Positions 24,772-52,710 of a DNA stretch of 64,000 bases are shown piece after piece. Position 1 is the stretch's first letter. Each line of letters opens with the position of its first letter. The position numbers and the translations under genes are program-made. This DNA is from Thermoplasmata archaeon (GTDB lineage Archaea > Thermoplasmatota > Thermoplasmata > Lutacidiplasmatales > UBA184), in the NCBI GenBank assembly GCA_035502455.1, contig DATJUI010000019.1, forward strand, positions 13,378 to 77,377, written 5' to 3'. Below the pieces are notes generated by a model that did no database searches, was not told the DNA's origin, and saw only the letters and a program-made list of their open reading frames with translations.

Positions 24772-25584
24772 ATGAGCGACGACGACGCCCGCGAAGGCCC
24801 GGGCCGCGCGCCGCTCGCGGTGCACGCCGCCGAGCTCCGTTGCGAACCGTGCGCGGCGGTGACCCCGCACCGGATCCTCCGGCTGGCCCGCGGCCGAGGA
24901 GGCGGCCCGGTGCGCGGACTCGCCCGCTGCCGCAGTTGCGGGTTCACGCACCCGTTCGAGTCCGAGGTCCCCCGCACCGAGCTCACGACCGTGATCCTGT
25001 CGGACGGCCCGCGCTCGACCCGACATCGGCTCCTCCTCGCGTCGGGGACGCGCCTCGTGGTCGGCGGTCGCATCCCGGGGGCGCCGGGACCCTGGACGGT
25101 GCGCCGGCTCGAGGACCCCGACGGACGTTCCGCCTCCGAGGCGCGGGTGGGGAAGATCGCCGCGGTGTGGGCCGTCCCGACCGGCGACCGCGCGGTCCCC
25201 TTCTCGCTCGTCATCGGCCGGATCACGCGCGCCGGACGGCTCCCGCTCGCCCCCGACACCCCGCTCGAGGTCGGAGCGCCCGTCCGCCTGCCCGAAGGGC
25301 CGGCGACGATCGTCGGGCTGCGGGCGCGCCAGCGGACCTGGCGGAAGGAGGGGGATCGGTTCGCGGCCGAGGAGGTGCAGCGGATCTACGCCCGGCGGAC
25401 GTCGATCCCTCCGGCCGGGAGGAGCGACTGGAGGAGCGAACGCGGCACCCCGAGCTCGCGCGCGAGCGCGACCTCGCGTTCCGCCCGAGCGCGCTCGTCG
25501 CCGGGCACGAGGACCGCCCGGACCTCGCCGAGGGCCCGCACCGACGCCACCGGCGCGGCGGTCCACCGCAACGCCCCTTCGTAG
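24772..25584 (+). CDS. hypothetical protein with N-terminal zinc ribbon
   Basis: CEPC...CRSCGF Cys4 motif then a beta-rich domain; 3' end overlaps convergent NFACT gene by about 200 nt. Confidence 0.5.
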   Translation: MSDDDAREGPGRAPLAVHAAELRCEPCAAVTPHRILRLARGRGGGPVRGLARCRSCGFTHPFESEVPRTELTTVILSDGPRSTRHRLLLASGTRLVVGGRIPGAPGPWTVRRLEDPDGRSASEARVGKIAAVWAVPTGDRAVPFSLVIGRITRAGRLPLAPDTPLEVGAPVRLPEGPATIVGLRARQRTWRKEGDRFAAEEVQRIYARRTSIPPAGRSDWRSERGTPSSRASATSRSARARSSPGTRTARTSPRARTDATGAAVHRNAPS

Positions 25585-27419
25585 TCGATCGGCCCGAGCG
25601 CGAGCTCGAGCGGCAGGTCCTTCAGCACGTTCTTCGTTCCGTGGATCACCCACGCGCCCCGGGAGACGAACTCCCCGCTCGCCGCCGCCTTCGACACCTG
25701 GTCCGGACGGACCCAGAACGCCGAGGCCGAGGCGAGGCCGGCCCGCCACGCCTTCGAGAAGCAGACCGCCCACTGCGCGGCCTCCGCGAGCGTGGCCGGC
25801 CCGATGCTCCCCGTCTCGGGGGGGCGCTTGACGACGACGCTCGCCGCGCCGTGGAGGTCGGCGTGGAGGTAGACGTCGCCGTCTTTGAGGTGCCGACGGA
25901 CGACGAGATCGTTCGACGAGGCGTCGCGACCGGCCACCGCGACGACCCGCTCGGAGCTGACGAACCACCGGTACCGCTCGAACCACATCGGGCGGCGCGC
26001 CCGGGACGCGGCGGCCGGTTCCGCCGGACCGACCGCCGCCGGGGGCCGCGCGATCTCGAGCTCAGCGCGCGACTGGGCGAGCGCCTCGGTCGCCCCGGCG
26101 AGCTTCTGCCCGACCCGCTTCGCCTCCTCGTACAGCGCCTGCGCCGACTCGCGCGGGGAGACGCCGCGCTTCAGCTCGACGGTCCGAGCGCCGAGGACCG
26201 CCCGGACGGTCGGCCCGGGGGGACCCTCGGCCGCCGCGAGCGCCGCCTCCGCCTCGGGATAGTGGGCGTAGATCGTCTCCGCCCGCGCCTTCGTATCGTC
26301 GATCTCCGCCGACAGGGCGGCGACCGCCGCCTCCTGCTGTGCGATCTGACGCTCGAGCTCGCGCCGCCGGGCCGCCCGCTGCGCGTCGGCCGGGCTCACG
26401 GGCGTCGGCACGAGGGTGCGGAAGTACGCGTAGGCGGCCTCCGAGAAGGTCGGCGAGCCCTCCTCGCGGACGCCGTCGACCCCCTCCCAACGGGCGGAGT
26501 GGTACGGCGTCGCGTCCAGGAGGTCGTCGCCCCGGAGGACCCGGTGACCGGTCGGGCGGTCCCCGATCTCGGCGCGCAGGGCGGCGATCGCGCCGGCCAG
26601 CGCCGCCGCGACCTCGTCGGGGGCCCGCGTCGCCGGCTCGGACCCGTCGCGCCGGGCCCGCGCGACGAGCTCCTCGGCGACGGGACCCCCGAACGAGAGC
26701 CGCGCCGCGACGGTGCTCGTGAGGTCGGTCCGGGACCGGGCGAGGACCGCCGCGATGCCCGCGGCATCGACGGCCCACGGGTCGGTCCGCTCGGGCGGGC
26801 GCGAGAACGGCGCGCCGACCCGCACGAGCCGGTGCGCCCAGCGGCGCGCCGTGGCGACGGCGACGAGGCGCCCCTCGCGGGCCACCGTGAGGTTCCCCGT
26901 GCCGAACATCTCGAGGGCGACGAGCGACGGCGCGGGGTCGTCGGAGCGGCCGAACGTCAGCTCGAGGTACCGCTCGCCTCGCGGCTCGGCGACCGACTTG
27001 AGCGCCGCCCCGGCGAGCAGCCGCCGCAGGTCCCGCGCGAACGGCGAGAGCTCCTCGCGGTGGTCGAGCGGGCCCGCCAGGAGCGCGGCGAACCGGCCGG
27101 GCACCAGGAGGAGCTCGCGCCGTCCGTCCTTCGCGGATCGGAGGGTCAACGACCAGCCCCCGTCCGCCGCGTCGAACGCCTTGTCGACGCGCACCGGCCC
27201 GAGGGCTCGCAGCTCCCGGGCAACGGCGAGGGTGTCGAGCGAGGTGAACCGGTCCTTGGGTGACGGCGCTGCCGGCAACGATCCCGCCCCCGAGGAGACG
27301 ACGGGGCACGACCCATTAAGAGTTCGGCGTGCTCCCGCGGGCCGTGCCGCCGGAGCTCCCCCGCGACGCGCGGGGTTGGCGGGAGCGTGCCCGATCGTTC
27401 GCGGAACGCACGGTCGCAC
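25386..27419 (-). CDS. NFACT-family ribosome quality control protein (Rqc2/NEMF/FbpA homologue); start uncertain
   Basis: N-terminal NFACT-N (SLDTLAVARELRAL...), coiled coil, and DUF814/NFACT-R (RWFVSSERVVAVAGRDASSNDLVVRRHLKDGDVYLHADLHGA). Confidence 0.8.
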   Translation of the reverse strand: MRPCVPRTIGHAPANPARRGGAPAARPAGARRTLNGSCPVVSSGAGSLPAAPSPKDRFTSLDTLAVARELRALGPVRVDKAFDAADGGWSLTLRSAKDGRRELLLVPGRFAALLAGPLDHREELSPFARDLRRLLAGAALKSVAEPRGERYLELTFGRSDDPAPSLVALEMFGTGNLTVAREGRLVAVATARRWAHRLVRVGAPFSRPPERTDPWAVDAAGIAAVLARSRTDLTSTVAARLSFGGPVAEELVARARRDGSEPATRAPDEVAAALAGAIAALRAEIGDRPTGHRVLRGDDLLDATPYHSARWEGVDGVREEGSPTFSEAAYAYFRTLVPTPVSPADAQRAARRRELERQIAQQEAAVAALSAEIDDTKARAETIYAHYPEAEAALAAAEGPPGPTVRAVLGARTVELKRGVSPRESAQALYEEAKRVGQKLAGATEALAQSRAELEIARPPAAVGPAEPAAASRARRPMWFERYRWFVSSERVVAVAGRDASSNDLVVRRHLKDGDVYLHADLHGAASVVVKRPPETGSIGPATLAEAAQWAVCFSKAWRAGLASASAFWVRPDQVSKAAASGEFVSRGAWVIHGTKNVLKDLPLELALGPIDYEGALRWTAAPVASVRALGEVRAVLVPGDERARAEREVALARELGVPRSLLQSLLPAGGIDVRRA

Positions 27420-28480
27420 CGCAGAGCGCGGCGATCGACCGGACCGACCGGGTCCCGGACGAGATCGTCGCGCAGCTCGCCCGGGAACGGTTCCTCGGTC
27501 TCGGGATCCCCGCGGCGTGGGACGGGGCGGGCGGCGACGCGCGGTCGACGGTCGCGGTCCTCGAGGAGCTGGCGTACGCCAGCGCGGCCGTCGCCGTCCT
27601 CGTCGCGGTCCACCTCTCCGTCTGCGCCGCCCCGATCCTCGCCTGGGGGACCGACACGCAGCGCTCCCGCTACCTGCGGCCGCTGGCGCGGGGAGCGACG
27701 ATCGGCGCGTTCGGCCTCACGGAGCCCGGCGCCGGCTCCGACGCCGCCGCGATCACGACGCGGTACGAGCCCGTCGCGGACGGCTACCGGCTCCGGGGCA
27801 CCAAGATGTTCACGTCCAACGCCGCGTCGGCGGGGGTCATCCTCGTCTTCGCGACCCGGGACCCCGCCCGGGGGCACGCGGGCATCTCCGCCTTCGTCGT
27901 CCCGCCGGGGACGCCCGGTTTCTCGGTGGCGCAGCGCCTCGACAAGCTCGGGCTGCGGGGCAGCGAGACGACCGAGCTCGTGCTGGACGGCGTGCCGGTG
28001 CCGCCCGACGCCCTCCTCGGCCCGGAGGGGGCGGGGCTCAAGGTCGCGCTCGGCGCCCTCGCCGGCGGACGGGTCGGGATCGCCGGCTGCGCGCTCGGCG
28101 TCGCCCGGGCGGCGTACGACGCCCTGTGCGCGGCCGCCGCTCGGACGCCCACCGACGCCCATCGTTCCGAGGTCGCGCGGGCGTACGCCCGCCTGGCGGC
28201 GGCGCGGGCGTTGGTCGAGCGGGCGGCCGAGGTAAAGGACGCGGGGGCGCCGTTCGTGCGGGAGGCGTCGGTAGCGAAGCTCGTCGCTTCGGAAGCGGCG
28301 TTCGCGATCGCCTCGGCCGGGGTCGACGTCGCGGGGCCGGCCGGCACCCGGGCGGGCGCGACGGCGGAGCGGCTCTTCCGCGACGCCCGGGTGTTCCCGA
28401 TCGTCGAGGGGACGACCGAGATCCAGGAGCTCCTCCTGGGCCGGGAGCTGCTCGGCGACCGTCGCGCGGAGAACCCTTAG
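27329..28480 (+). CDS. acyl-CoA dehydrogenase
   Basis: 383 aa; GLTEPGAGSDAAA and FPIVEGTTEIQ motifs of the ACAD family; cattaagag TATA-like element just upstream. Confidence 0.85.
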   Translation: MLPRAVPPELPRDARGWRERARSFAERTVAPQSAAIDRTDRVPDEIVAQLARERFLGLGIPAAWDGAGGDARSTVAVLEELAYASAAVAVLVAVHLSVCAAPILAWGTDTQRSRYLRPLARGATIGAFGLTEPGAGSDAAAITTRYEPVADGYRLRGTKMFTSNAASAGVILVFATRDPARGHAGISAFVVPPGTPGFSVAQRLDKLGLRGSETTELVLDGVPVPPDALLGPEGAGLKVALGALAGGRVGIAGCALGVARAAYDALCAAAARTPTDAHRSEVARAYARLAAARALVERAAEVKDAGAPFVREASVAKLVASEAAFAIASAGVDVAGPAGTRAGATAERLFRDARVFPIVEGTTEIQELLLGRELLGDRRAENP

Positions 28481-28504
28481 GTATCGGGCCCGGCTCCGTG
28501 GGCC

Positions 28505-30787
28505 GTGCCGAACCCGGACCGGGCCCGTCGACCGCCCGCCTCGGCCGAGGGCGTGGCGGTCGCCGCGACGGCGATCGATCCCGCGTGGCGCGCCGTCCTC
28601 GAGAAGGAGGGCATCACGCGGCTCTACCCGCCGCAGGCGGAGGCGGTCGGACCCGTGCTGGCCGGGGAGAGCCTCGTCCTCGCCTGCCCGACCGCGAGCG
28701 GGAAGTCGCTCGTCGCCTACCTCGCGCTCCTGCGGGCCGCGCGCGAGGGCCGTACCGGCCTCTACATGGTCCCGCTGCGGGCGCTCGCCCACGAGAAGGC
28801 CGAGGAGCTCGAGCGGTTCGCGGAGGTCGGCCTCACGGTCGGGATCTCGATCGGGGACTACGACCTGCCCAACGAGCGGTTGGAGCGGCTCGACGCGCTC
28901 GTCGCGACGAGCGAGAAGGCCGACGGGCTGCTCCGCCGCCGCAGCCCGTGGCTGGACCGGCTCGGCGTCGTCGTCGCCGACGAGGTCCACCTGATGCGCG
29001 ATCCGGACCGGGGGCCGACGCTCGAGGTCACGCTGACCCGCCTGCGCCGGGCGTACCCCGACCTTCAGATCGTGGCGCTGTCGGCGACCGTCGGGAACTC
29101 GGAGGACGTCGCCGAGTGGCTGGGCGCCCGGCACGTGAAGAGCGAGTTCCGGCCCGTCCCGCTCAAGCTCGGGGTGTACTTCGACGGGCGGGTGACGTTC
29201 ACCGACCTCTCGACGCGTCCGATCGCCGGTCCCGGCGAGGCCGTGCCGCGGCTGGTCCGCAGCGTCGTCCAGGAGGGCGGCCAGGCGCTCGTCTTCGTCA
29301 ACAGCCGGCGCGCGAGCGAGCAGCTCGCGGAGGCGCTCGGCGCGACGGTGCGACCGCTGCTCGACCCCGAGGCCCGCGCCCGCGTGAAGGCCGCCGCCGA
29401 CGAGCTCGCGACGGTCTCGGACGAGGAGACCGAGGGGATCCGGCGGCTGTCGGGACTGCTCCCGAGCGGGGTCGCCTTCCACAACGCGTCGCTCACGAAC
29501 CCGGAGCGCCGCGTCGTGGAACGCGCGTTCCGCGACCGGGGGCTGAAGGCGCTCGTCGCGACGCCGACCCTCGCCGCCGGGATCAATCTGCCGGCCCGGC
29601 GGGTCATCGTGCGGGATACCTCGCGCTACGACGACGCGCTCGGGCTGCAGGCGCCGATCCCGGCGCTCGAGGTCCACCAGATGCTGGGACGTGCCGGCCG
29701 GCCCCGGTTCGACACGGTCGGCGAGGCGCTGCTGATCGCCCGGACCGAGGACGACGAGGAGCGGCTCATGGACGGCTATCTGTCGGCGCCGCCGGAACCG
29801 ATCGAGAGCCGACTGGCAGCCGATCCCGCGCTGCGGATGCACGTCCTCGCGCTCGTGGCGAGCGGGGCCGTCGCGACCGAGGCCGAGCTCGCGTCGTTCT
29901 TCGCGTCGACGTTCTACGGCCACACCCTGCGGGCCGAGGAGCTCGACCCCCGGATCGCGCGCGTCCGCCGGTTCCTCGAGGCGCACGAGCTGCTCGAGCG
30001 CGGCCCGCAGCTGCGCGCGACGCGGTTCGGGGCGCTCACGAGCGAGCTGTACCTCGACCCGACGAGCGCGATCGTCCTCCGCCAGGTGCTCGAGCGGGCA
30101 CCGATCGGGGTCGGACCGTTCCCGCTCCTCGCCGCCATCGCCGCGACGCCGGACCTCCCGTCGCTGTTCCTCCGGCGGGGCGAGGAGTCCGACCTCCTCG
30201 CCCGCTACACCGACGAGGCGGAGGAGCTGCTCGTGAAGCCCGAGGAGCCGCCGATGGAGCTCGACTTGGACGGGTTCCTCGCGACGCTCAAGACGGCCTC
30301 GGTGCTCGAGGCGTGGATCGCCGAAACCCCGATCCTCGAGATCACCGGCCGCTTCCAGCTCGGGGCGGGCGATCTGCGGACGAAGGTCGAGGACGCGGAT
30401 TGGCTGCTGTTCGCCGCCGGCCGGCTCGCCCACGCGTTCCATCGGCGGCTCGCCCGGCCGTTCGACGACCTCGCGCTGCGCGTCCGCTACGGGGTCACCG
30501 AGGAGCTGCTCGACCTCGTCCGTCTCCGGGGGATCGGACGCGTGCGGGCGCGCATGCTCTACCGGGCCGGCTTTCCCGACCGCGAGGCGCTGCGGCAGGC
30601 ACCGTTCGCCCGGATCGAGCAGGCGTTGCGCTCGTCGGCCCTCGCCGAGATGGTCACGCGACAGTTGGGCCGCACCCGGACGGCCCGGGCGGATCCGCCG
30701 GCTCCCGACCGGCCCCCGTCCACCCCGGGTCCGGTCCGCCGGAGCGGACGCACGCTCGAGGAGTACCCCACGGACCCGGAGCCGTGA
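28505..30787 (+). CDS. hel308: ATP-dependent DNA helicase Hel308 (Ski2-like)
   Basis: 760 aa; Walker A PTASGKS, DEVH box, helicase C, and Hel308-type winged helix/ratchet/HhH C-terminal domains. Confidence 0.9.
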   Translation: MPNPDRARRPPASAEGVAVAATAIDPAWRAVLEKEGITRLYPPQAEAVGPVLAGESLVLACPTASGKSLVAYLALLRAAREGRTGLYMVPLRALAHEKAEELERFAEVGLTVGISIGDYDLPNERLERLDALVATSEKADGLLRRRSPWLDRLGVVVADEVHLMRDPDRGPTLEVTLTRLRRAYPDLQIVALSATVGNSEDVAEWLGARHVKSEFRPVPLKLGVYFDGRVTFTDLSTRPIAGPGEAVPRLVRSVVQEGGQALVFVNSRRASEQLAEALGATVRPLLDPEARARVKAAADELATVSDEETEGIRRLSGLLPSGVAFHNASLTNPERRVVERAFRDRGLKALVATPTLAAGINLPARRVIVRDTSRYDDALGLQAPIPALEVHQMLGRAGRPRFDTVGEALLIARTEDDEERLMDGYLSAPPEPIESRLAADPALRMHVLALVASGAVATEAELASFFASTFYGHTLRAEELDPRIARVRRFLEAHELLERGPQLRATRFGALTSELYLDPTSAIVLRQVLERAPIGVGPFPLLAAIAATPDLPSLFLRRGEESDLLARYTDEAEELLVKPEEPPMELDLDGFLATLKTASVLEAWIAETPILEITGRFQLGAGDLRTKVEDADWLLFAAGRLAHAFHRRLARPFDDLALRVRYGVTEELLDLVRLRGIGRVRARMLYRAGFPDREALRQAPFARIEQALRSSALAEMVTRQLGRTRTARADPPAPDRPPSTPGPVRRSGRTLEEYPTDPEP

Positions 30788-31859
30788 CCCACTCCTCGAT
30801 CGGCTGGAGCAGACGGACGACCGAGAGCGTCCCGCCGGTTCCGCCGGGCCGCACCTCGCGCCGCACGTAGCCGGCCCGCTCGAGCGCCACGATCCGGCGC
30901 CAGAGCGTCGTCGCGGGCAGCGGCCGACGCCCGAGCTCGCGGGCCAGCCGCGCCTCCAACTGCTTCACGTCGGCGAGACGGGCGCGGTCCGCGCGGGTCG
31001 CGTCCCCGATCGCCCGCACCACGTGGGTCTCGATCGAGACCGCGAACGGCGTCGGGCGCGGGAATCTCGGGTCCGCGCGGGCCGCGGCGCCCACCAGCCG
31101 CCGGCGCACGAGATCGATCGCGCGGGTCGCGCCTCCCCCGTCCTCGAGGCTGCGGGCGACCGCGTTCGCCACCCAGTCGTCCGGCGGGGGGCCGCCGATC
31201 GCGCGCTGGAACCGATCGCGCACGATCGCGGTCAGCATCGCCTCGTCGTACGGGCGCAGCGAGACGAACGGGCGGACGGGGAACGGGGGATGGACCGCGC
31301 GCTCCGCCGCGCCCAGCCCCTCGGGGGTCCCGGCGAGGACGACCCACGTCGGCGGCAGGCCGAACTCCCCCTCGGGCAGAAATCGGTCGGGCGCGCCGAG
31401 CGCCCGCAGCAGCGGCCCGAGATCCGGCCCTCCGACCTGCACGTCGTCGAGCACGAGGACGGTCGGCCGCCGCTCGCGGCGGACCCGGCGCAGGAATCCC
31501 GCGAGGATCTCGTTGACCGGAAATCCGTGGCCGGCGAACCCTTCGTCCAGCCGCTGCAGGAGCGCCGTGGCCACGCCGTGCGCCCCGCGCAGTCGCGCGG
31601 TGCGGAGGGCGAGGGTGCGGGGCGGTGCGTCCGGTCCGGCCGCGCGGATGCGCTCGACGGTCTCGCGCGCCGCCCGCCGGGCGAGGGCGGACGTGCCCGA
31701 CCCGCTCGGACCGGCGACGGCCACGGCCCACGGCGGTGGGGCGCAGGGTCGGGGCGCGTCGAGCCGTCGGACCGTCTCGGCGAGCTCCCGGGCGCGGCCG
31801 GGCAGCACCGGCGGAAGCCAGTCGTGGGCGAGCACCTCGGGATGCGCGGAGGTTTCCAT
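30654..31859 (-). CDS. Orc1/Cdc6-like AAA+ protein with C-terminal winged helix; degenerate Walker A
   Basis: 401 aa; P-loop-like GPSGSGTS lacks the conserved Lys; Walker B VLVLDDV; C-terminal wH (TLWRRIVALERAGYVRR); overlaps hel308 3' end by 134 nt. Confidence 0.4.
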   Translation of the reverse strand: METSAHPEVLAHDWLPPVLPGRARELAETVRRLDAPRPCAPPPWAVAVAGPSGSGTSALARRAARETVERIRAAGPDAPPRTLALRTARLRGAHGVATALLQRLDEGFAGHGFPVNEILAGFLRRVRRERRPTVLVLDDVQVGGPDLGPLLRALGAPDRFLPEGEFGLPPTWVVLAGTPEGLGAAERAVHPPFPVRPFVSLRPYDEAMLTAIVRDRFQRAIGGPPPDDWVANAVARSLEDGGGATRAIDLVRRRLVGAAARADPRFPRPTPFAVSIETHVVRAIGDATRADRARLADVKQLEARLARELGRRPLPATTLWRRIVALERAGYVRREVRPGGTGGTLSVVRLLQPIEEWVTAPGPWGTPRACVRSGGPDPGWTGAGREPADPPGPSGCGPTVA

Positions 31860-31952
31860 GGGACGATGTATATCTTCGATGTATAAGAATTCTTATGACT
31901 CGCCCGGACGGTCGGTGAAAGTTGCTATCTGCCGTCGCCGCTCGGCTCGACG

Positions 31953-32891
31953 ATGGCCGAGAGCCCGACCTCGACCGGTCGTCCGCTGCGGTGGCTCGCG
32001 GCGAAGCTCGTCGCCACGACCCTGGCGGCCGGTGCCATCTACGTCTTCTTCACGATCTTCAACCACCGGTTCCTCGGTTCGTTCACCGAACCCGAGATCC
32101 TGCTGCTGGAAGCGGTGGCGGTGATCGTCATCGCCTACGCGATCGCGCGCTCGGTCACCACCGCCTCGTCGGAGATCCTCGCCCGGCGAGGGCTCCTCAG
32201 CCACGGGCACGTCGTCCGGCTGTTCGCGAACCTGGTGATCGCGATCGTCGCGGTCGTCGCGCTGTTCAACCTGGCGGGGGTCCCGGCGGAGTCGATCTTC
32301 CTCGGAAGTGCCCTCGCGGGCATCGTCCTCGGCCTGGCCGCGCAGACCGTGCTCTCGAACGTCTTCGCCGGCCTCCTGCTCGTCTTCGCCGACCCGTTCC
32401 GCCCGGGGGACCGGGTCAGCTTCGTCTCGTCGTCGTACCCCGTGATCTGGCCGACGTATCCGCACGAGATCACGACCCCCGCGTACTCGGGGACGATCGA
32501 GGACGTCGGCCTCGTCTACACCGTCCTGCGCCTCGATTCGGGGCTCCAGGCGCGGCTCCCCAACGCGGTCGTGCTCGGCTCGCTGGTCCTCCAGCCCCGC
32601 TCGCCGGCCGGGACCGTCCACCGGGTCCGGGTCACGGTGCCGATCGCCGTCTCCACGACGGTGATCGAGGGGGCGCTGCCCGAGATCCAGCGGGCGTTCC
32701 CGAAGCCGAGCCCCCTCGATCCGGCGGCGCGCTTCGAGGTCGCGGACGTGACGCCGGCGTCGTGGGACGGGGTGTTCGTCCTGACGGCGACCGAAGTGCA
32801 GGACGGACGCGTGCGCGACGGCGTCCTGCGCATCGTGCTGCCCCGCATCGCCGCGGCGCTGAGGAGCCCCGGCGCGCCCGCCACTCCTTAA
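31953..32891 (+). CDS. mechanosensitive ion channel (MscS family)
   Basis: 312 aa; three N-terminal TM helices then the MscS beta domain (VGLVYTVLRLDSG...RLPNAVVL). Confidence 0.8.
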   Translation: MAESPTSTGRPLRWLAAKLVATTLAAGAIYVFFTIFNHRFLGSFTEPEILLLEAVAVIVIAYAIARSVTTASSEILARRGLLSHGHVVRLFANLVIAIVAVVALFNLAGVPAESIFLGSALAGIVLGLAAQTVLSNVFAGLLLVFADPFRPGDRVSFVSSSYPVIWPTYPHEITTPAYSGTIEDVGLVYTVLRLDSGLQARLPNAVVLGSLVLQPRSPAGTVHRVRVTVPIAVSTTVIEGALPEIQRAFPKPSPLDPAARFEVADVTPASWDGVFVLTATEVQDGRVRDGVLRIVLPRIAAALRSPGAPATP

Positions 32892-32931
32892 ATCGGCCCG
32901 ACGCTCGGCGGCAGGGCAGCGGGGATCGTCG

Positions 32932-34041
32932 ATGAGCTATCGGGTGACGCTGATCCCGGGCGACGGGATCGGCCCGGAGGTGACGGACGCCGCCCGCGCG
33001 GTCGCGGCCGCGACGGGGGTCGCGATCGACTGGGAGGTCGTGGAGGCCGGCGAGCGCGCGATCGCCGCGAGCGGCACCCCGCTCCCGGACGCCGTGCTCG
33101 ACTCCGTGCGTCGCAATCGCGTCGCGCTCAAGGGCCCCATCACGACGCCGATCGGCAGCGGGTTCCGCTCCGTCAACGTCGCGCTCCGCCAGCAGCTCGA
33201 TCTCTACGCCTCGGTCCGCCCCGCCCGGGCGATCGCCGGCGAGGGGACCCGCTTTCCCGAGACGAACCTCGTCGTGGTCCGGGAGGCGACCGAGGGCCTC
33301 TACTCCGGCGTCGAGCACTGGGTCGATCGGGACCACACCGCGGCCGAGACGGTGAACGTGATCACCCGCAAGGCGTCGGACCGGATCATCCGGTTCGCGT
33401 TCGAGCTCGCCCGACGCGACCACCGCCGCCACGTGACGGCGGTCCACAAGGCGAACATCATGAAGACGACCGGCGCGCTGTTCCAGACGGCGTTCCGGGA
33501 GCTCGCGCCGAAGTATCCCGATATCCTCGCGGACGAGCGCCTGATCGACAACATGTGCATGCAGCTCGTGAAGAAGCCCGAGGAGTACGACGTCCTCGTC
33601 ACGACGAACCTGTTCGGCGACATCCTCTCCGACCTCTGCGCGGGCCTCGCGGGCGGCCTCGGGGTCGCGCCCGGGGCGCTCTACGGGGAGGGGCTCGCCG
33701 TGTTCGAGCCGGTCCACGGCTCCGCGCCGAAGTACGCGGGCCAGGACAAGGCGGACCCGGTGGCGGAGATCCTCTGCCTCGAGCTCCTGCTCCGCCATCT
33801 CGGGGAGCGGGCGGCCGCCGACCGCGTGTTCCGCGCCGTCTGGGAGACGATCCAGGAGAAGAAGGTCGTGACCTACGACCTCGCCCTGCCGGGCTACACC
33901 CAGCGGCCGGTCCCTCCGTCGTCGTGCAGCGCGATGGCCCGGGAGATCGCCCGCAAGGTCCCGCTCGTCGACCTCTCGACCCCGCTGCCGGCGCCGCCCG
34001 TGCACGAGGCCGGCCGGATCGACTCGCAGCTCGTCAGCTGA
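32932..34041 (+). CDS. isocitrate/isopropylmalate dehydrogenase-family enzyme (probably NAD(P)-isocitrate dehydrogenase)
   Basis: 369 aa; IPGDGIGPEV, LKGPITTPIGSGFRSVNVALRQQLDLYASVRPAR, KANIMKTTGALF motifs; cttaaatc TATA-like element about 45 nt upstream. Confidence 0.85.
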   Translation: MSYRVTLIPGDGIGPEVTDAARAVAAATGVAIDWEVVEAGERAIAASGTPLPDAVLDSVRRNRVALKGPITTPIGSGFRSVNVALRQQLDLYASVRPARAIAGEGTRFPETNLVVVREATEGLYSGVEHWVDRDHTAAETVNVITRKASDRIIRFAFELARRDHRRHVTAVHKANIMKTTGALFQTAFRELAPKYPDILADERLIDNMCMQLVKKPEEYDVLVTTNLFGDILSDLCAGLAGGLGVAPGALYGEGLAVFEPVHGSAPKYAGQDKADPVAEILCLELLLRHLGERAAADRVFRAVWETIQEKKVVTYDLALPGYTQRPVPPSSCSAMAREIARKVPLVDLSTPLPAPPVHEAGRIDSQLVS

Positions 34042-34096
34042 TCCGCTACGGCTCCGGGCGTACCCTTAAGGCTCGGCGGCCTCGCTCCCCTCGGCC

Positions 34097-34648
34097 GTGT
34101 CGAGCCCCCGACCCGTACGGATCGCCCGCCCCGCGCCGACGACCGAGGCGCGGCCGCGGCGCGCGCGCCGTCGGGCCGACCCCGAGTCGGACGCACCCGG
34201 TTGGCGGCCGAACACCGCCGGCTCGCAACGGGCGGTGCACCTCGCGGAGCTGTTCGTCGGCGCGATCGTGGTGCTGTACGCGGTCCTCGCGGTGCTCGAC
34301 CGCACCGGGCCGGACGGCTCGACCCCGGGGGCCACGGTCGGCCTCCTGATCTTCACCTTTCTCGCGGTCGTCCTCGGTCTCTGCGGCGTCGTCTTCGCGC
34401 TCAGCCAGGCGCCGCGCGGCGTGGAGGTGACGGCGGACGCGACGGTCGTCGTCGGGCGGTTCGGACGGCGGACGGAGTACCCGCCGCTCGCGCGGCTCAA
34501 GGCGAGGGAGGTCCGTCGGTTCGCCCCCGGGATCCTCGCCCGCGCCCCGGTGCTGCTCGTCGAGCTTCGGACCGCGAGCGGCCGCCCTTCGAACGTCCTG
34601 CTCGAGGACGGCCTGATCCCGGTCGCGGGTCGCCCGTCCGACGACTGA
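34097..34648 (+). CDS. hypothetical membrane protein
   Basis: Two predicted TM helices (VGAIVVLYAVLAVL; LLIFTFLAVVLGLCGVVFAL) then a soluble domain. Confidence 0.45.
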   Translation: MSSPRPVRIARPAPTTEARPRRARRRADPESDAPGWRPNTAGSQRAVHLAELFVGAIVVLYAVLAVLDRTGPDGSTPGATVGLLIFTFLAVVLGLCGVVFALSQAPRGVEVTADATVVVGRFGRRTEYPPLARLKAREVRRFAPGILARAPVLLVELRTASGRPSNVLLEDGLIPVAGRPSDD

Positions 34649-34654
34649 ACGGCG

Positions 34655-35060
34655 CTATTCGAGCAGGTCCTCGAGCTCGCTCGCCACGAGGGTGAGCAGC
34701 TGGTCGAGCGACCGGTTCTTGAGCTCGGTGATGTGGCCGACGTCCGTCTCGAGGCGCGCGAGGAAGTCCTCCCCGTCGCGGACGAACGACAGGGAGAGCA
34801 CGTGACGCCGTCCGTCCGGCGACGGGACCTCGAGGGCCGCGGTCGGGGCCTTCGGCGCCGCACTCGCCTTCGCGGCCGGGGGCGTCCGGCCCTTCGGCGC
34901 CGCCTTCGCGGTGACCTTCGGGGCCGGCTTGCCCCCGCGCGAACCGGCCGTCGGTCGCGCGGCGGGCACTGCCCGGCGCGACGCCGCAGGTCGCTTCGAC
35001 GCGGGCTTCGCCTTCGGCTTCTGACGGTGGGAGCTCGGCAACCGGGTCGCCTCGAGTCGG
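34655..35060 (-). CDS. small Lys/Ala/Pro-rich protein with conserved C-terminal domain; leaderless, TTG start inferred
   Basis: Minus-strand frame ...SSHRQKPKAKPASKRPAASRRAVPAARPTAGSRGGKPAPKVTAKAAPKGRTPPAAKASAAPKAPTAALEVPSPDGRRHVLSLSFVRDGEDFLARLETDVGHITELKNRSLDQLLTLVASELEDLLE; a perfect TATA box lies about 20-25 nt upstream of the TTG. Confidence 0.45.
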
Positions 35061-35070
35061 GCGCACCAAG

Positions 35071-35086
35071 CCCCCCTATTTATGCG
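35071..35086 (-). promoter_or_regulatory. archaeal TATA box (minus strand reads gcataaataggggg)
   Basis: Isolated A/T octamer ataaatag in GC-rich intergenic DNA, positioned for a leaderless transcript of the 34655-35060 gene. Confidence 0.4.
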
Positions 35087-35170
35087 TTCGCGGGGCGACG
35101 GCGCGCCCGAGCGGCCCGCGCGGGTCCGGGCGCACGCCTTTAGCCCGAACGCCCCCCTACCGCTCCGCGC

Positions 35171-37009
35171 ATGGGCGCCGCGAGCCGACCGCCCCAGGGG
35201 GCCCGACCCGCCGCGCCGGAGGCGATCCGCCCCGAGATCCTGCTGCTCCTCGCCGGGCTGTCGCTGCTGCTCGTCTTCCTCGCGCTCGAGCCGTACCTGT
35301 CGTACGCCGTGTTCGGTTCGGACTCGGGCGAGTACTACCGGCTCACGGCGACGCTGTTGTCGACGGGCACGCTCCCCCACGGGGCGGCGTACGGCGGGTG
35401 GGGCACCGCGTACCCCGACTTCCCCGGCATCTACCTGCTCGCCGGCGCGAGCGCGGGGGCGCTCGGCATCGGGGCGTTCGACGCGCTCACCGTCGTCGTC
35501 CCGGTCGTCGCCGTCCTCTCGGTGTTCCCGCTGTTCCTCCTGTTCCGCCGGCTCTATCCCCACGACACCGTCGCGCTGCTCGCCGCCGCGATCGCATCGA
35601 TCGCCATGCCGCGCCTCTTCTCGATCGCCCACCCGGCGCCGCTCGCGCTGGGCGACTTCCTGTGCGTGGCCTCCCTCTGGATGCTCGTCGAGAGCCGACG
35701 GGACGTGCGGTGGCTGGTCCCGCTGTCGCTCACGGGCGGGGCGTTGATCGTCACGCACCACCTCTCCTCGTACTTCTTCGTCGTGAGCGCCCTCGGCGGC
35801 CTCTTCTTCCTCGAGATGTGGCGGCCGGGGCTCTGGAGTCGCCGCTTCCCGACGCGGGAGCTCGCGTGGCTCGGCGGGTTCGTCACGGCGACCTTCGTCT
35901 TCTGGTTCTACGGGACGACCTCGTTCGTCACCAAGGTGATCCTCGAGGGGCTGCCGTACCCGTCGTACGTCGGGTTCGTCGGATTCGAGGCGATCGCCCT
36001 CGGGGTGATCGGCGCGGCCGCCCTGCTGATCCGCTGGCGGCGCGCCCGGTACCGCCCGCGACCCGCGCGCGTGCGGCTGCCGACCGACCGCAGCCTGGTC
36101 CGGGACCTCACGGCGATCGCCGTCGTCGTCTTCGTGCTCGTCGGGGTGATCGTCTTCGTCCCGATCCCCGGCACGACGCAGACCACGACGCCCGCGACGA
36201 TCCTGTGGTTCGCCCCGCTCCTCGCGCTCGGCGTCTTCGCCGCCGGGAGCCGCCGGACGCCCTCGGTCGCGCGCCTGGGGCCGTTCGCCCTCACCTGGCT
36301 GGGGGGTCTCGGCCTGTCGGCCGGCCTCATGCTCGCCCTCTCGGCCATCGCCGGGACGGGCGGTCAGTACGAGACGCTCGCGAGCTTCGCGTCGACCCTC
36401 TCCCCCGAGCGGACGGTCGAGTACCTGTTCCTGCCCCTCGGCCTCCTGTTCGCGATCGGCCTCGCCCGCCTCGTCACCCGGGCCGGCGACGCGGGCGGAC
36501 GCCGCGCGTTCGTCGCGGCGGCGACCGGGGTCGTGGTGCTGCTCGCGGTGAACGCCGCGATCGTCTACCCGCCGCAAGCCCAGTTCGGCGGCTTCGAGGA
36601 GGGGCTCACCCGCGGCGACGCGGCGCTGTGGATGTGGGTCGGGATCGCGGCCCCGACGACCTGGGTCGTCGCGAGCGACCACCGGCTGAGCTCCATGGTG
36701 TTCGGCTTCGACGGCAATCCGGCCACGTGGGTCACGACCCCCGCGCTGTTCACCGGCACGAACGCCTCGCAGGCGTACGCCGAATTACGGAGCGTCGGGG
36801 CGCCCAACCCGGCCGACCCGCATCCGGTCGACCTCGTAGCGATCGACGCGGTGATGTACACGGGCGTTGCGCTCAACCCGTCGGACGCGGCGCCGCCGCT
36901 CACCGCCCAGGCGATCGCGTGGTTCGGAACGATGCCGTTCGTCCCGCTCTACGAGAGCGGCCTCTACGTCGTCTACCTCGTCGTGGGGCCGGCCGTCCCC
37001 GCGGGATAG
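35171..37009 (+). CDS. large polytopic membrane protein, possible GT-C-type glycosyltransferase or oligosaccharyltransferase-like
   Basis: 612 aa; at least 12 predicted TM helices and a C-terminal soluble domain; adjacent to the GT2/epimerase genes. Confidence 0.55.
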   Translation: MGAASRPPQGARPAAPEAIRPEILLLLAGLSLLLVFLALEPYLSYAVFGSDSGEYYRLTATLLSTGTLPHGAAYGGWGTAYPDFPGIYLLAGASAGALGIGAFDALTVVVPVVAVLSVFPLFLLFRRLYPHDTVALLAAAIASIAMPRLFSIAHPAPLALGDFLCVASLWMLVESRRDVRWLVPLSLTGGALIVTHHLSSYFFVVSALGGLFFLEMWRPGLWSRRFPTRELAWLGGFVTATFVFWFYGTTSFVTKVILEGLPYPSYVGFVGFEAIALGVIGAAALLIRWRRARYRPRPARVRLPTDRSLVRDLTAIAVVVFVLVGVIVFVPIPGTTQTTTPATILWFAPLLALGVFAAGSRRTPSVARLGPFALTWLGGLGLSAGLMLALSAIAGTGGQYETLASFASTLSPERTVEYLFLPLGLLFAIGLARLVTRAGDAGGRRAFVAAATGVVVLLAVNAAIVYPPQAQFGGFEEGLTRGDAALWMWVGIAAPTTWVVASDHRLSSMVFGFDGNPATWVTTPALFTGTNASQAYAELRSVGAPNPADPHPVDLVAIDAVMYTGVALNPSDAAPPLTAQAIAWFGTMPFVPLYESGLYVVYLVVGPAVPAG

Positions 37010-37716
37010 GGGACCATCGACCCGTCGCTCCCCCAGAGCAGCACGGGCGTCGTCCCGTCCCGGGCGAGGACGGCGAGCAGCGCGTTCGCCCATCGGAGCT
37101 TCGCGAGCTTGCGGGCGGCGCGGGCCGGGTCGGCCTCGACGACCCGGTCGAACGCGAAGCCCCAGAGCAGGATGCGGCGGGCGCCGACCTCGTCCGCGAG
37201 GTACGCCGCCCGGTCCCCGTCGGTGAACCCGCCCACGTCGAGGAGGCCCTCGCGCGGCGGGCCCGCCCACGACCCCGCGAGCGCGCCGTCGAACGCCGGG
37301 ACCCACTCCTCGAGCGCCGGCACGTTGTCGCCGTGCGCGTGCACGACGACGAGGCTGCCGTGCCGGTTGGCGGAGATCTCGGCCGGGACCGACCCGTCCA
37401 GGTCCGTCGTGATGACCGACGGGACCAGTCCGGCCCGGACGAGCGCCGCCGTCGCGCCGTCGGCGGCGACGAGCGCGGGCTCGGGCTCGGTCGCCGGGAG
37501 CCGCCACAGCGGCGGCGGGTCGACGCCCGGGGCGTCCCCGACGACGATCGTGTCGCGCCCCCGAAGCCGCTCGGCGACCCGCTCGAGGGCCCGCGCCCGG
37601 GCGGCCGGTGGGAGTAGCTCGACCAGGCGACGGGCGGCGCCCTCCTCGCGGCTCCAGGGGAAGCCGAACTCCGTCCGCAGCCGTTCGTACCACGGAGCCC
37701 ACGCCGCGTAGCGCAC
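36973..37716 (-). CDS. MptE-like 6-hydroxymethyl-7,8-dihydropterin pyrophosphokinase (DUF115)
   Basis: GTG start; VITTDLDG ... [11 protein letters not shown] motifs typical of archaeal MptE; track embeds it in a 705-aa artefact ORF. Confidence 0.65.
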
Positions 37717-37741
37717 GGAGGCGGCGACACCGCCGTAACGC

Positions 37742-37750
37742 TTTATAATA
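37742..37750. promoter_or_regulatory. near-palindromic TATA box (tttataata) shared by divergent mptE-like and ftsZ genes; SD-like aggag 10 nt before the ftsZ ATG
   Basis: Sits 26 nt from the mptE GTG (leaderless geometry) and 36 nt from the ftsZ ATG. Confidence 0.4.
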
Positions 37751-37785
37751 GAGTCCCTGCTCCCGCCGTCAGGAGAAGCCCACCG

Positions 37786-38910
37786 ATGCGGCCGCTCGCG
37801 CAGGAGATCCTCTCGCACCTTCCGACGGACAGCAAGCGCGGGGCCGAGAGCCCCGCCCCGCCGTCGAACGACGACAGCGAGCTCGAAGCGATCCTCGCCT
37901 CGCTCAAGACCAACATCAAGGTGGTCGGGTGCGGCGGCGGCGGCTGCAACACGATCAACCGGCTGTCCGAGGAGGGCCTGCAGGGCGCCGAGATGGTCGC
38001 GTGCAACACCGACGCGCAGCACCTCCTCGCGATCCACGCCCCGAAGAAGATCCTGCTCGGCCGGCGCCTGACCCGCGGGCTCGGGGCCGGCGCGCTCCCC
38101 CAGGTCGGCGAACAGGCCGCTCGCGAGGCCGAGGACGAGCTCAAGAAGGCGCTCGCGAGCTCCGACATGGTGTTCATCACCCTGGGCCTCGGCGGGGGCA
38201 CCGGGACCGGCTCCGCGCCGGTCGTCGCCCAGTGCGCGAAGGACGCCAACGGCGGCAACCCGCTCACGATCGCCGTCTGCACGCTCCCGTTCGCCTCCGA
38301 GGGGATGGTCCGGCAGGAGAACGCGATGTGGGGCCTCGAGCGCCTGCGCTCCGTCGTCGACACGGTGATCACCATCCCGAACGACCGGCTGCTCGAGCTG
38401 GTCCCCCGCCTCCCGATCCAGACGGCGTTCAAGGTCGCCGACTCGGTCCTCGCCCGGGCGATCCGCGGGATCGCCGAGATCATCACCCGTCCCGGGCTCG
38501 TCAACCTCGACTTCAACGACCTGAGGACGATCATGAAGGGCGGCGGCGTCGCCCTCATCGGGATCGGGGAGTCCGAGTCCGACAACCGGGCGGAGGACGC
38601 GGTCCTCGAGGCGATCAACTCGCCGCTCCTCCATGTCGACATCGCCGGCGCCACGGGGGCGCTCATCAACGTTACCGGCGGTCCGGACATGACGGTGAGC
38701 GAGGCCCAGAAGGCGGCCGAGGTCGTCCAGAAGACGGTCTCCCCGACGGCCCGCATCATCTGGGGCGCGGCGGTCGATCCGACGATGCAGAGCACCATCC
38801 GGGTGATGCTGGTGGTGACCGGAGTTAAATCCCCCCAGATTTTCGGGGGCGCGCCGCCCGGGTCCGTCCCGGCCCGGAAGTCGGGGCCGGACCTCGATGT
38901 GGTCCACTAG
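37786..38910 (+). CDS. ftsZ: cell division GTPase FtsZ
   Basis: 374 aa; tubulin signature GGGTGTG ([15 protein letters not shown]) and T7 loop NxDxxD-type region. Confidence 0.95.
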
Positions 38911-45801: not shown

Positions 45802-46278
45802 CTACTTTCGGGCCCGGCCACCGGGACCGGGGCGCCTGTGCGTCCCTCGTCCACGAGGAGGTGGCCGTCTTGAGGATGTGGGCTCTCTTCCGAGACGTAT
45901 CCAGATTCCGTCGGGATCCTTGACCATCGCTGCCCATCCCCCAGTGGATTCCGGGGTGAACCGCGTGGCTCTACCTCCGTTTCGCAGGAGTTTCCGGTAC
46001 GCTCTATCGAGAGTGTAAGCCGGAGACGCACCGAGCGAGACGTCGATGTGATCCAGCTCGTCTCCCTTGCGGTACTTGGACGAGAACATGGAGCTTCGGG
46101 GATACCAGTTGAGTTCGAGGAGACGACGCGAGGTGGGATCCTGGAGGAGAGCGGTCACTCCGCCCCCCCAGCTACGACAATCATCCCTCCGGATCACGCG
46201 AAGTCCTAGTGCTCTCGTGTAGAACCTCACCGAACGCGGGAGATTCCCCACACGAATGCCGACACACTCGAGCCGCAT
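45802..46278 (-). CDS. VOC-family (glyoxalase/bleomycin-resistance fold) protein
   Basis: MRLECVGIRVGNLPRSVRFYTRALGL ... DPDGIWIRL beta-alpha-beta-beta-beta signature; C-terminal 30 aa probably read-through into the repeat. Confidence 0.6.
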   Translation of the reverse strand: MRLECVGIRVGNLPRSVRFYTRALGLRVIRRDDCRSWGGGVTALLQDPTSRRLLELNWYPRSSMFSSKYRKGDELDHIDVSLGASPAYTLDRAYRKLLRNGGRATRFTPESTGGWAAMVKDPDGIWIRLGREPTSSRRPPPRGRGTHRRPGPGGRARK

Positions 46279-46481
46279 CCTGAAGCATAGCGATCGAGGC
46301 TACTTAGGACCGAACCCAGTAGTTTCGACGCGCCCCCAGAGGTGCCGACCGAGACGCTAGATGGGTCCGCTGCGTACGGCCCCCAGCGAACTTTTCGCTG
46401 AGGGATTCGAACAAACGGCGATTCGACCACTAGCACGGGTGCTCTCCGAGCCGGCTCGATGAGCTATGTTCCCGACACGAC

Positions 46482-46508
46482 TATATTGATGTAGTGTATT
46501 GATGTGTA
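46482..46508 (+). promoter_or_regulatory. putative vapBC promoter/operator: two attgatgt direct repeats plus ctatatt TATA-like element
   Basis: attgatgt at 46485-46492 and 46498-46505, 5-15 nt upstream of vapB; RHH antitoxins typically autoregulate via repeats like this. Confidence 0.35.
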
Positions 46509-46511
46509 ACT

Positions 46512-46757
46512 GTGTCCGCAAAGACGGTGGCGTTGGACCCGGAGGCCTATGATATGCTGCGGCGCCAACGGCGAAGCGGCGAGACCTTTAGCGATGCGGT
46601 CAAGCGCCTTTCCGGCAAGCGCCGGTCGATCCTGGACTTTGCCGGGATATGGAAGGACATCCCCGACGAAGACCTCGAGAGGCTCCGCTCCTTCCTCGCA
46701 GAAGGACGGCGTCGGGACCGCGCGCGAATCGAGCGCCTGTTCCAGAAGGGGGGCTGA
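46512..46757 (+). CDS. vapB: type II antitoxin VapB (ribbon-helix-helix/COG4423-like)
   Basis: 81 aa; precedes the PIN gene with a 3-nt gap. Confidence 0.65.
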   Translation: MSAKTVALDPEAYDMLRRQRRSGETFSDAVKRLSGKRRSILDFAGIWKDIPDEDLERLRSFLAEGRRRDRARIERLFQKGG

Positions 46758-46760
46758 ACG

Positions 46761-47147
46761 GTGCGCTGCTTCGATTCAACTTTCCTTATCGATTACGTCC
46801 GGGGCGACGCGGACGCGGTCGGGAAAGTGAGAGAGCTCGTGGAGTTGGGTGAACGTCTCACGACCCCGTCCGCGGCTGCGGCCGAGGTCCTCGTCGGAGC
46901 TCACTTCCGGGGGCGGGGAGAACTCTCGCGAACTCTGGAATTCCTCGACCGCCTAGAGATCCTTCCCTTCGACATCGCCGAGGCAACCGAAGCCGGCAGG
47001 ATCGGTGCCGAGGCGCTTCGGCGGGGCGCCCCCATAGCGGGCAACGACCTGTTGGTCGCAGCGACCGCGCGACATCGCGGAGGGATACTCGTGAGCCGGG
47101 ACGGAGTCTTCTCGCAAGTGCCGGGCCTGGCGGTGGAAACGTACTGA
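46761..47147 (+). CDS. vapC: type II toxin VapC (PIN-domain ribonuclease)
   Basis: 128 aa; acidic PIN residues at conserved positions (CFDSTFLIDY ... AEV ... GNDLLVAATA ... SRDG). Confidence 0.8.
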   Translation: MRCFDSTFLIDYVRGDADAVGKVRELVELGERLTTPSAAAAEVLVGAHFRGRGELSRTLEFLDRLEILPFDIAEATEAGRIGAEALRRGAPIAGNDLLVAATARHRGGILVSRDGVFSQVPGLAVETY

Positions 47148-47182
47148 CGGATGGAGGGGATTCGTTACGGGGGCCGTAACGG

Positions 47183-47197
47183 ATCCCAGCACGGGCG
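47183..47197 (+). repeat. repeat copy 2: 15-nt exact match to the tRNA-Arg 3' end (atcccagcacgggcg) with about 45 nt of degenerate flank
   Basis: Identical to 45648-45662; follows vapC by 36 nt. Confidence 0.5.
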
Positions 47198-47486
47198 CCT
47201 TCCTCGGACCCGTGAGGAGCGGCGTGAGATTCGAGCACGATGAGACTCGGGCCCCCCCCGCGTCCAAGTGCGGGGTCTCGGCTGCTGGAGTCGAGGTGCC
47301 GTCGAGGTCGCCCGCTGACCCATGTGGGTGAGACGAACGTCTCGAAGTGCTCCCGATGAAGGTTCGCACCCGTGCAGCCTTGCCTCCTCCGCGGGACGTT
47401 ACCCCCGGTTTCAGATTCTGGGGAACCGCGGGTCAAGGAGGTCGAATGGCAGCCATTCAGCGAATCCGCTCGTCTTGCGGCGGGGG

Positions 47487-48320: not shown

Positions 48321-48672
48321 GATCTCGGGCGGCCGGCCCGCTGCGCGGCGTCCGTGTCCGAGGCGCTTGTGCTCGGTCCTGAGCCCCTCGACTCGACCCG
48401 GGATTGAGGGAGGTGTCGATCACAAATCCACAAGTGAGGTCATGGACCGGTTCCACGACCTCACGGCGGGTACGTGCTCCCGCGTCCCGAGCGGGCGCGG
48501 TGGAGTCGAATACGTAGCTGCTCGAATCCCAGTAGGGGCGCCTACCCTATCTCTGCCCGCGAGCGTGGACACGAAGGTAGAGAGACCTACGACACCTCGC
48601 GCCCCCACGGACTCGCACGGGGAGTCGCGCGTCGCCGGGAGTTGGGATGTCGCACCCCGGCTCCAAGACCGG

Positions 48673-52705: not shown

Positions 52706-52710
52706 GACGC

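Follow-up and report, generated by a model that had tools for sequence, protein, structure and literature searches.

Orc1/Cdc6 proteins are generally regarded as ATP-switched initiators. In eukaryotes, ORC2 and ORC3 are degenerate AAA+ proteins that lack nucleotide-binding or hydrolysis residues and are still essential structural and DNA-binding parts of the initiator. In Sulfolobus islandicus, Orc1-1 with the Walker A substitution K69A binds oriC1 in vivo while origin firing is abolished, and the Walker B substitution E147A leads to over-replication (PMC3607249). In Methanomassiliicoccales, the second gene copy, orc1/cdc6.2, evolves fast, has no adjoining origin recognition box (ORB), and has been proposed to be inactive or accessory (PMC4153887). 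Here we describe an Orc1/Cdc6-like gene in a 64,000-nucleotide (nt) stretch of contig DATJUI010000019.1 from a Thermoplasmata archaeon (hereafter, the window), which carries archaeal genes at ~74% guanine-plus-cytosine (GC) content. A first-pass annotation, made from the letters alone, had placed an open reading frame (ORF) on the minus strand here, and we recovered it at 30654 to 31859 with an ATG start and 401 amino acids (aa). With modest confidence, we read its product (the Orc-like protein) as an ATPase-dead, DNA-binding derivative of Orc1/Cdc6 with a regulatory or architectural role, rather than as a canonical ATP-gated initiator.

The residues expected to support ATP hydrolysis are altered throughout the family. 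The P-loop reads GPSGSGTS (residues 50 to 57; 31689 to 31712, minus strand), as the first-pass annotation had noticed, and Thr56 replaces the Walker A lysine. In 119 family members, position 56 is T in 100, S in 15, A in 4, and K in none, while G50, G53, and G55 are invariant and S57 is present in 118. The Walker B strand TVLVLDD (residues 133 to 139; 31443 to 31463, minus strand) had been called intact; the sequence VLVLDDV is there (within TVLVLDDV, residues 133 to 140), but the motif is D-D (D138 in 119/119 members, D139 in 118/119) and not the D-E usual in Orc1/Cdc6. Since D-D also occurs in ~8 of roughly 60 canonical homologues sampled, Walker B is the weaker criterion. The sensor-1 polar residue is not conserved and has apparently been lost. 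Because the Walker A lysine is missing family-wide, canonical ATP hydrolysis by the Orc-like protein is very unlikely, which supports the earlier suggestion that it could not hydrolyze ATP.

The protein contains a single lysine in 401 residues. GC pressure alone is nevertheless insufficient to account for the missing Walker A lysine, since P-loops elsewhere in the genome have kept it (G-x-x-G-x-G-K-S in SMC and ASGKS in Hel308). The motif loss is, judged from this sequence pattern, fixed and selected rather than a product of decay. Two deep-branching members, P0167 and P0168, read G-S-G-R-T-T, with arginine at the position of the lysine. A single change at the second position converts any one of the codons AAG (Lys), AGG (Arg), and ACG (Thr) into another, and the arginine hints at a GC-driven route by which lysine may have been lost once constraint had relaxed.

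The remainder of the protein is recognizably Orc1/Cdc6. The model TIGR02928 (Orc1/Cdc6) matched at 2.6e-13 and 49.6 bits, short of its family cutoff of 181.3, and the equivalog models NF001625 and NF001623 gave 12 to 15 bits against cutoffs of 311 to 501. A family profile built from 26 relatives and run against all Protein Data Bank (PDB) sequences had as its best match Sulfolobus solfataricus Orc1-1 (2qby_A, 4e-8), with further matches to Pyrobaculum aerophilum Cdc6 (1fnn), Aeropyrum pernix ORC2 (1w5s), and eukaryotic Cdc6/Orc1. In the reverse direction, a canonical Thermoplasmata Cdc6 profile matched family genes at ~1e-13 to 1e-27 in the loci listed. In an AlphaFold model based on the family alignment (mean predicted local distance difference test [pLDDT] score, 84.5), an AAA+ base carrying a two-helix insert is followed by a lid, a winged helix, and a disordered tail. 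In a Foldseek search of the PDB, the best entries were Orc1/Cdc6/ORC structures (E values of 7e-14 to 1e-6) in full-length alignments of 380 to 395 columns. The AAA+ plus winged-helix layout proposed at first pass is thus what model and fold comparison recovered.

The individual domains follow the same plan. A segment aligning with the initiator-specific motif (ISM) spans residues 86 to 131 (31467 to 31604, minus strand; loop GFxGHGFP), and in the model its helices (92 to 104 and 115 to 129) lie between strand 2 (81 to 86) and strand 3 (133 to 140). The family profile aligns the part containing this segment with Orc1-1 residues 9 to 138. In the lid, GGGA[TR]RA is matched to GDARRA of 2qby_A; R246, the sensor-2 arginine, is invariant in the family alignment and absent from a lysine-less sister clade described below. 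The C-terminal winged helix (residues 277 to 357; 30789 to 31031, minus strand) has the modeled order helix-strand-helix-helix-strand-strand over residues 277 to 350, and its motif TTLWRR..LE.AGY aligns with HTQFW..L...G of Thermoplasmata Cdc6. An N-terminal DW[LV]PP..R..E motif is conserved in the family. The C-terminal tail (44 residues plus the stop; 30654 to 30788, minus strand) is disordered, with pLDDT below 50 from residue 364, and lies antisense to the end of hel308.

Pfam alone would suggest another assignment, a STAND/AAA_16-type NTPase of signaling or defense and no relative of Orc1/Cdc6. Only the generic AAA_16 (residues 19 to 154) and AAA_22 models matched the Orc-like protein, weak nSTAND matches occurred in 12 of the 26 profiled members, and WHD_Cdc6 was not detected in any of the 26. 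Cdc6_lid, however, was found in 6 of the 26, the gene is single-copy and sits in housekeeping synteny, and Orc1/Cdc6 proteins were the top full-length matches both by profile and by fold, so that no clear classification into a non-Orc AAA+ family emerged. We rejected the defense/STAND reading, which we regard as highly improbable: there was no PADLOC match, there were no extra domains, and the first non-ORC structures in the Foldseek results, plant NLRs (E value of ~1e-6), appeared only at rank 42 among the 50 listed. With profile and fold matches led by Orc1/Cdc6 and no PADLOC match, the Orc-like protein is a diverged member of the Orc1/Cdc6 superfamily and of no other AAA+ family.

In a database search, 404 relatives matched; the 120 listed are ~400 aa long and 57 to 68% identical, and the names given to them in public sources go no further than "AAA family ATPase" or "hypothetical protein." When GTDB was scanned with one genome for each species, 93 genomes had the gene. 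The 80 loci listed from that scan derive mainly from soil and peat, and all but three are labeled Thermoplasmata archaeon. The family ranges over high-GC soil Thermoplasmata of the Lutacidiplasmatales type, with at least 93 species-level genomes. UBA184, which is among the loci found, belongs to the order Lutacidiplasmatales, for which ~69% GC and a genome size of about 2.1 Mb are described (PMC9287336). When 1.84 billion representatives were searched exhaustively with a profile, the matches fell into three tiers: the family itself, the sister clade at E values of 1e-38 to 1e-10, and, ranking only below these, canonical proteins with G-K-[ST] and D-E. Sister-clade P-loops read G-x-x-G-x-G-[TS]-[ST] (GPRGSGTS), again without lysine, and their Walker B is D-Q or D-N.

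Conservation within the family is uneven. Mean column identity is highest in residues 142 to 170 (0.84), the ISM-aligned segment (0.83), the winged helix (0.82), and the P-loop (0.82) and lowest in the interdomain linker (0.37) and the tail (0.35). This pattern speaks for purifying selection on the family, including the altered P-loop and the regions aligned with DNA-binding elements. It also bears on whether the gene has no function and is a paralogue in decay, on its way to becoming a pseudogene. The catalytic residues are lost, the composition is extreme (the lone lysine; second-position GC of 0.62 versus 0.51 in hel308), and the protein evolves faster than Hel308 (median identity, 59% versus 75%). 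Against this, an intact ORF of ~400 aa persists in the 93 species-level genomes and in hundreds of metagenome contigs, dozens of columns are invariant, those of the altered P-loop included, and the promoter is conserved down to ~30% protein identity. This conservation pattern effectively refutes decay, to which we attach almost no probability.

Together, these features are those of an Orc1/Cdc6-derived protein that retains the fold and the modules with which aligned canonical proteins grip DNA (ISM and winged helix) but lacks the lysine of Walker A, the glutamate of Walker B, and, it appears, the polar residue at sensor 1. By analogy with Orc1-1 K69A, it should bind DNA without ATP-dependent activity, most likely constitutively and with no ATP switch. 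Its probable role would be sequence-specific regulation or architecture tied to replication and fork repair, possibly via hel308. Such a protein would be a natural separation-of-function variant of the initiator fold, fixed across a whole order of abundant, uncultured archaea of soil and in a sister clade.

Several observations weigh against a DNA-binding pseudo-ATPase with a regulatory role. A role as a regulator would not automatically follow from the loss of ATPase activity, because the non-initiator paralogue Orc1-2 needs both ATP binding and hydrolysis (PMC9738581). The conserved altered P-loop, the DW[LV]PP..R..E motif, and R246 suggest that a nucleotide or another phosphate ligand could still be bound. 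The protein could also still be an initiator, since no canonical Orc1/Cdc6 was assignable to the lineage: searches with family and canonical profiles, which are insensitive and covered the window and the 80-odd family loci, recovered it as the sole Orc/Cdc6 homologue, with no second canonical-profile match in any family locus. Its position hints at an origin-proximal locus in two ways. The gene lies ~6 kb from FtsZ-SecE-Spt5-L11 (~37.6 to 40.6 kb of the window), on the side opposite that of canonical Cdc6, which was 4 to 7 kb downstream of FtsZ-SecE-Spt5-L11(-L1-L10-L12) in 17 of 21 Thermoplasmata loci longer than 12 kb. The second hint is its partner hel308, which in Haloferax volcanii lies close to oriC1 and orc1 (PMC1868953).

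The alternative that these observations favor is that the Orc-like protein is the actual initiator of the lineage, descended vertically from a Thermoplasmata Cdc6 near the FtsZ-L11 cluster and recruiting MCM either without an ATP switch or with a noncanonical P-loop ligand, at an origin that is cryptic or located elsewhere. We consider this possible, although doubtful. The protein shares a G-F-x-x-R-G-F loop (FPDRGFS in Thermoplasmata Cdc6) and a T..W recognition-helix motif with the Thermoplasmata Cdc6 group. Hidden Markov model (HMM) bit scores, in contrast, do not tie the family specifically to that group: comparison with canonical groups (Cdc6-1-like or other) gave 58 versus 73 bits and placed it with none in particular. 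The failure of the Walker A lysine mutant of Orc1-1 to fire its origin also speaks against an initiator of this kind, as do the lack of ORB repeats or an unwinding element near the gene and the arrangement of the ribosomal protein genes. The L1-L10-L12 block that usually precedes canonical Cdc6 is missing after L11 in the window, and a canonical copy could therefore have moved with it.

Canonical genes from high-GC soils point both ways. A metagenome scan found canonical Cdc6 genes on soil contigs of 66 to 70% GC, so canonical copies do exist at such compositions, but none was assignable to the lineage; the tetranucleotide signatures of these contigs fall below the 5th percentile of Lutacidiplasmatales loci, which is weak evidence that they belong elsewhere. 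Ala+Arg+Gly+Pro content was unreliable as a proxy for host GC. Word-based searches with three high-GC canonical Orc1 proteins (P0244, P0266, and P0257) returned singletons only, although low-complexity words probably overwhelmed one of the searches. P0244 itself lies on what may be a mobile element. Neither Cdc6 nor Orc1 has an entry in the supplement to the paper on Lutacidiplasmatales. Overall, we think it unlikely that Lutacidiplasmatales and related high-GC Thermoplasmata do without canonical Orc1/Cdc6 and use the lysine-less protein as their initiator. If they did, origin licensing in an archaeal order would proceed without the supposedly universal ATP switch, or via an altered P-loop ligand, and the assumed need for an ATP switch in archaeal initiation would be challenged. 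If the genomes also hold a canonical copy, the family would represent a new, widely conserved way of using the Orc fold outside initiation, with a link to hel308.

Some features of the canonical loci are of separate interest. Among the canonical G-K-T Orc1/Cdc6 proteins found, only P0244 has a composition as strongly shaped by GC as that of the family. At its locus (L177; ENA ERZ1761204, farmland soil, 18.9 kb), it heads a run of more than 20 small codirectional ORFs, none of which matched Pfam, and the ORF call splits off its winged-helix part; it resembles the replication gene of a virus or plasmid of a high-GC host. Canonical Thermoplasmata Cdc6 is often followed by a DUF835 gene (metagenome loci L090 to L171), and the FtsZ-L11/Cdc6 synteny could aid origin location in the phylum.

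The intergenic region upstream of the Orc-like gene (31860 to 31952, 93 nt), which separates it from a divergent gene for an MscS-type mechanosensitive channel (31953 to 32891, plus strand; Pfam MS_channel_2nd), was as first annotated. Its two cgatgtata repeats (31864 to 31872 and 31877 to 31885) and its aagaattctt palindrome (31885 to 31894) were likewise confirmed, the latter lying within a palindrome, TATAAGAATTCTTATg, that pairs at 15 of 16 positions (31882 to 31897). The region is not the most AT-rich of the window, as had been claimed. Among 93-nt windows it ranks fourth, behind 52620 to 52712 (GC of 0.42), 47524 to 47616, and 46466 to 46558, and it is second only when 40-nt windows are compared (GC of 0.33).

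Two interpretations had been offered for these sequences, promoter elements shared with the MscS-type gene and degenerate ORB-like elements, and the comparative data fit the first. Alignment of 75 family loci at the start codon revealed three conserved upstream blocks. The first, a candidate core promoter element of the Orc-like gene with a B recognition element (BRE) and a TATA box, reads gTCATAAGAATTCTTATA in the window (31882 to 31898, minus strand). Its family consensus, T.AACAG[A/T]ATTCTTATA, is at its position in 73 of the 75 loci and is absent from the rest of the window and of 866 kb of family loci; the spacing between its end and the ATG is 22 nt in 56 of 66 loci. The same element is found upstream of sister-clade genes (loci L086 and L089) whose proteins are only ~30% identical. 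A promoter-proximal element, AGATATAC (31868 to 31875, minus strand; consensus AG..AT.C), occupies -16 to -9 relative to the ATG in the window, and its columns are conserved in a motif-anchored alignment of 58 loci. On the other strand, a core-promoter-like element of the MscS-type gene, GTGAAAGTTGCTAT (31915 to 31928, plus strand), ends 24 nt before the MscS ATG. In the family loci, a conserved ATAGCAGTTTTCA lies ~55 nt upstream of the Orc-like gene and ~25 nt ahead of the divergent start codon, at a distance that is fixed to within 1 nt in 30 of 40 loci.

Archaeal TATA boxes have an established position of roughly -26, and the elements thus lie where the BRE/TATA of two divergent leaderless genes would be expected. 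From these spacings, we infer that the 93-nt region comprises two back-to-back core promoters of essentially leaderless genes. The palindrome is the first conserved block (BRE/TATA), and the two 9-mers are the form that the TATA box and the proximal element take in the window; the exact 9-mer repeat is not conserved among other species. The Orc-like gene would accordingly be driven by its own strongly conserved TATA/BRE promoter, probably giving a leaderless mRNA. Since T.AACAG[A/T]ATTCTTATA is conserved beyond the needs of a generic TATA box, it is a candidate regulatory site, and the promoter may be a place of auto- or cell-cycle regulation.

An ORB-like reading, in which the region is a degenerate origin with the 9-mers and palindrome acting as mini-ORBs, would draw on the local AT richness directly upstream of an Orc-like gene and on GTGAAAAC in the neighbor's promoter, which in some loci resembles part of the ORB core CAGTGGAAAC. 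We regard it as very improbable. A search of the window with the euryarchaeal core TTCCAGTGGAAA gave no match at two or fewer mismatches and 15 at three, against 11.3 expected by chance; because the same consensus also found no sites beside canonical Cdc6 in loci L090 and L091, the power of this test is limited. Every conserved upstream element keeps a constant spacing, of the kind seen in promoters, from one or the other start codon, the exact repeat is not shared by other species, and the region is only 93 nt long without repeated inverted elements. More broadly, there were no origin-like repeat families and no long AT-rich unwinding region within ~6 kb of the gene; a repeat search of 30600 to 38000 gave GC-rich chance repeats only. 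De novo ranking of conserved noncoding 10-mers across 74 loci returned only coding motifs (Icd) at the top, and GC skew showed no clear switch over the 64-kb window.

At its other end, the Orc-like gene overlaps the repair helicase gene hel308 (28505 to 30787, plus strand; 760 aa; Pfam DEAD, Helicase_C, and Helicase_dom4_arc), which matched the NCBIfam model PRK02362 at 4e-230 and 766 bits, under that model's curated cutoff of 887. The two genes converge with a 3' overlap of 134 nt (30654 to 30787, both strands), in agreement with the first-pass annotation. Nor is the overlap special to this genome: of the 81 loci in which both gene ends could be placed, 79 share it, with lengths of 108 to 203 nt (mostly 119 to 143) that are congruent to 2 modulo 3 in all but one locus. 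Sister-clade genes likewise converge with hel308, with overlaps of 107 and 131 nt at 73% GC and, in locus L088 at 59% GC, a gap of 34 nt and no overlap.

Composition points to how the overlap may have arisen. GC at the three codon positions is 0.77/0.86/0.75 in the tail versus 0.83/0.59/0.92 in the Orc-like core; the tail has no third-position GC peak, and its second positions mirror the third positions of hel308. The antisense frame of hel308 contains 15 stops in 761 codons, so an open run of ~44 codons is ordinary. The overlap is best explained as read-through into the neighbor owing to the scarcity of stop codons at 74% GC, an explanation suggested by the gap that replaces it in the 59%-GC relative. 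The 44-residue tail and the 134-nt overlap would then reflect reading on into hel308 until a stop, after which the overlap would have become frozen because both reading frames now constrain it. The locus offers a clean example of very high GC yielding long conserved convergent overlaps.

In this high-GC lineage, long 3' overlaps appear to be frequent. A second convergent overlap in the window, of 199 nt, joins genes of the NFACT family and a CPxCG zinc finger protein (25386 to 25584), and YjbQ and isocitrate dehydrogenase (Icd) genes overlap convergently by 67 nt in locus L004. Very long ORFs (807 to 1385 aa) occur on both strands between 24840 and 30870, e.g., 26713 to 30870 (plus strand) and 27146 to 30442 (minus strand). 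We do not regard these as genes; they lie opposite real genes or in another reading frame of them and are artifacts of stop scarcity at 74% GC. Hel308 of the lineage has a variable Pro/Ala/Arg-rich C-terminal linker and, at its extreme C terminus, a conserved R-x-[ST]-x-R-[RT]-L-[DE]-[DE]-[FY]-P-x-[DE] motif (loci L004 to L085), here RSGRTLEEYPTDPEP (30740 to 30784, plus strand), which is absent from the 59%-GC relative L088 and may be a protein interaction peptide.

Elsewhere in the window, an SMC gene (a 1,231-aa open frame) is followed by a ScpA-like gene (6261 to 10912, plus strand; the open frames overlap), which, with FtsZ-SecE-Spt5-L11, places the Orc-like gene amid chromosome segregation and cell division genes. 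The MscS-type gene, which adjoins the Orc-like gene in 31 of 54 family loci, is a neighbor outside the Orc-like system. An IS110-family transposase (DEDD_Tnp_IS110 plus Transposase_20; 2 to 1168, minus strand) lies at the window edge. The segment from 46000 to 56000 has a GC of 0.62 to 0.68, compared with ~0.74 elsewhere, and contains the lowest-GC stretches of the window; it holds an ABC-2 transporter pair (52711 to 54670), a methyltransferase (50919 to 51653), and several ORFs that matched no Pfam model, and it may be an island gained by horizontal transfer. Scanning the window for Rfam families and tRNAs gave no matches.

Compared with archaeal Orc1/Cdc6 proteins (Orc1-1, 2QBY_A; A. pernix ORC1, 2V1U; Thermoplasmata Cdc6), the Orc-like protein has the same three-part architecture of an ISM-type base, a sensor-2 lid, and a winged helix. 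Thermoplasmata Cdc6 resembles it further in the N-terminal D-[WY]-[LV]-P...R-E, the GF..RGF loop, the T..W helix, and the vicinity of FtsZ-SecE-Spt5-L11. Unlike canonical Orc1/Cdc6, the family has no Walker A lysine, carries D-D for D-E, does not conserve the sensor-1 polar residue, falls far below the TIGR02928 cutoff (49.6 versus 181.3 bits), escapes detection by WHD_Cdc6, and has no adjoining ORB matches. The Orc-like gene is convergent with hel308, whereas hel308 was not beside canonical Cdc6 in 82 loci. Eukaryotic ORC2 and ORC3 act in a hetero-oligomeric ring with active partners, while no partner Orc was found in the window or in the family loci. Methanomassiliicoccales orc1/cdc6.2 is likewise a fast-evolving Orc1/Cdc6 copy of the same phylum with no ORB adjoining (PMC4153887); it is not reported there to have lost the Walker A lysine, and the Orc-like family differs in its strongly conserved context and promoter. 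The Sulfolobales protein Orc1-2, a non-initiator and global regulator of the DNA damage response, retains working Walker motifs and depends on ATP binding and hydrolysis (PMC9738581), a switch that the Orc-like family cannot use. Orc1-2 is a regulator, whereas a regulatory role for the Orc-like family is a prediction. In both cases, the Orc1/Cdc6 fold appears to be used beyond origin firing, and the conserved pairing with hel308 is suggestive of a link to repair shared with Orc1-2.

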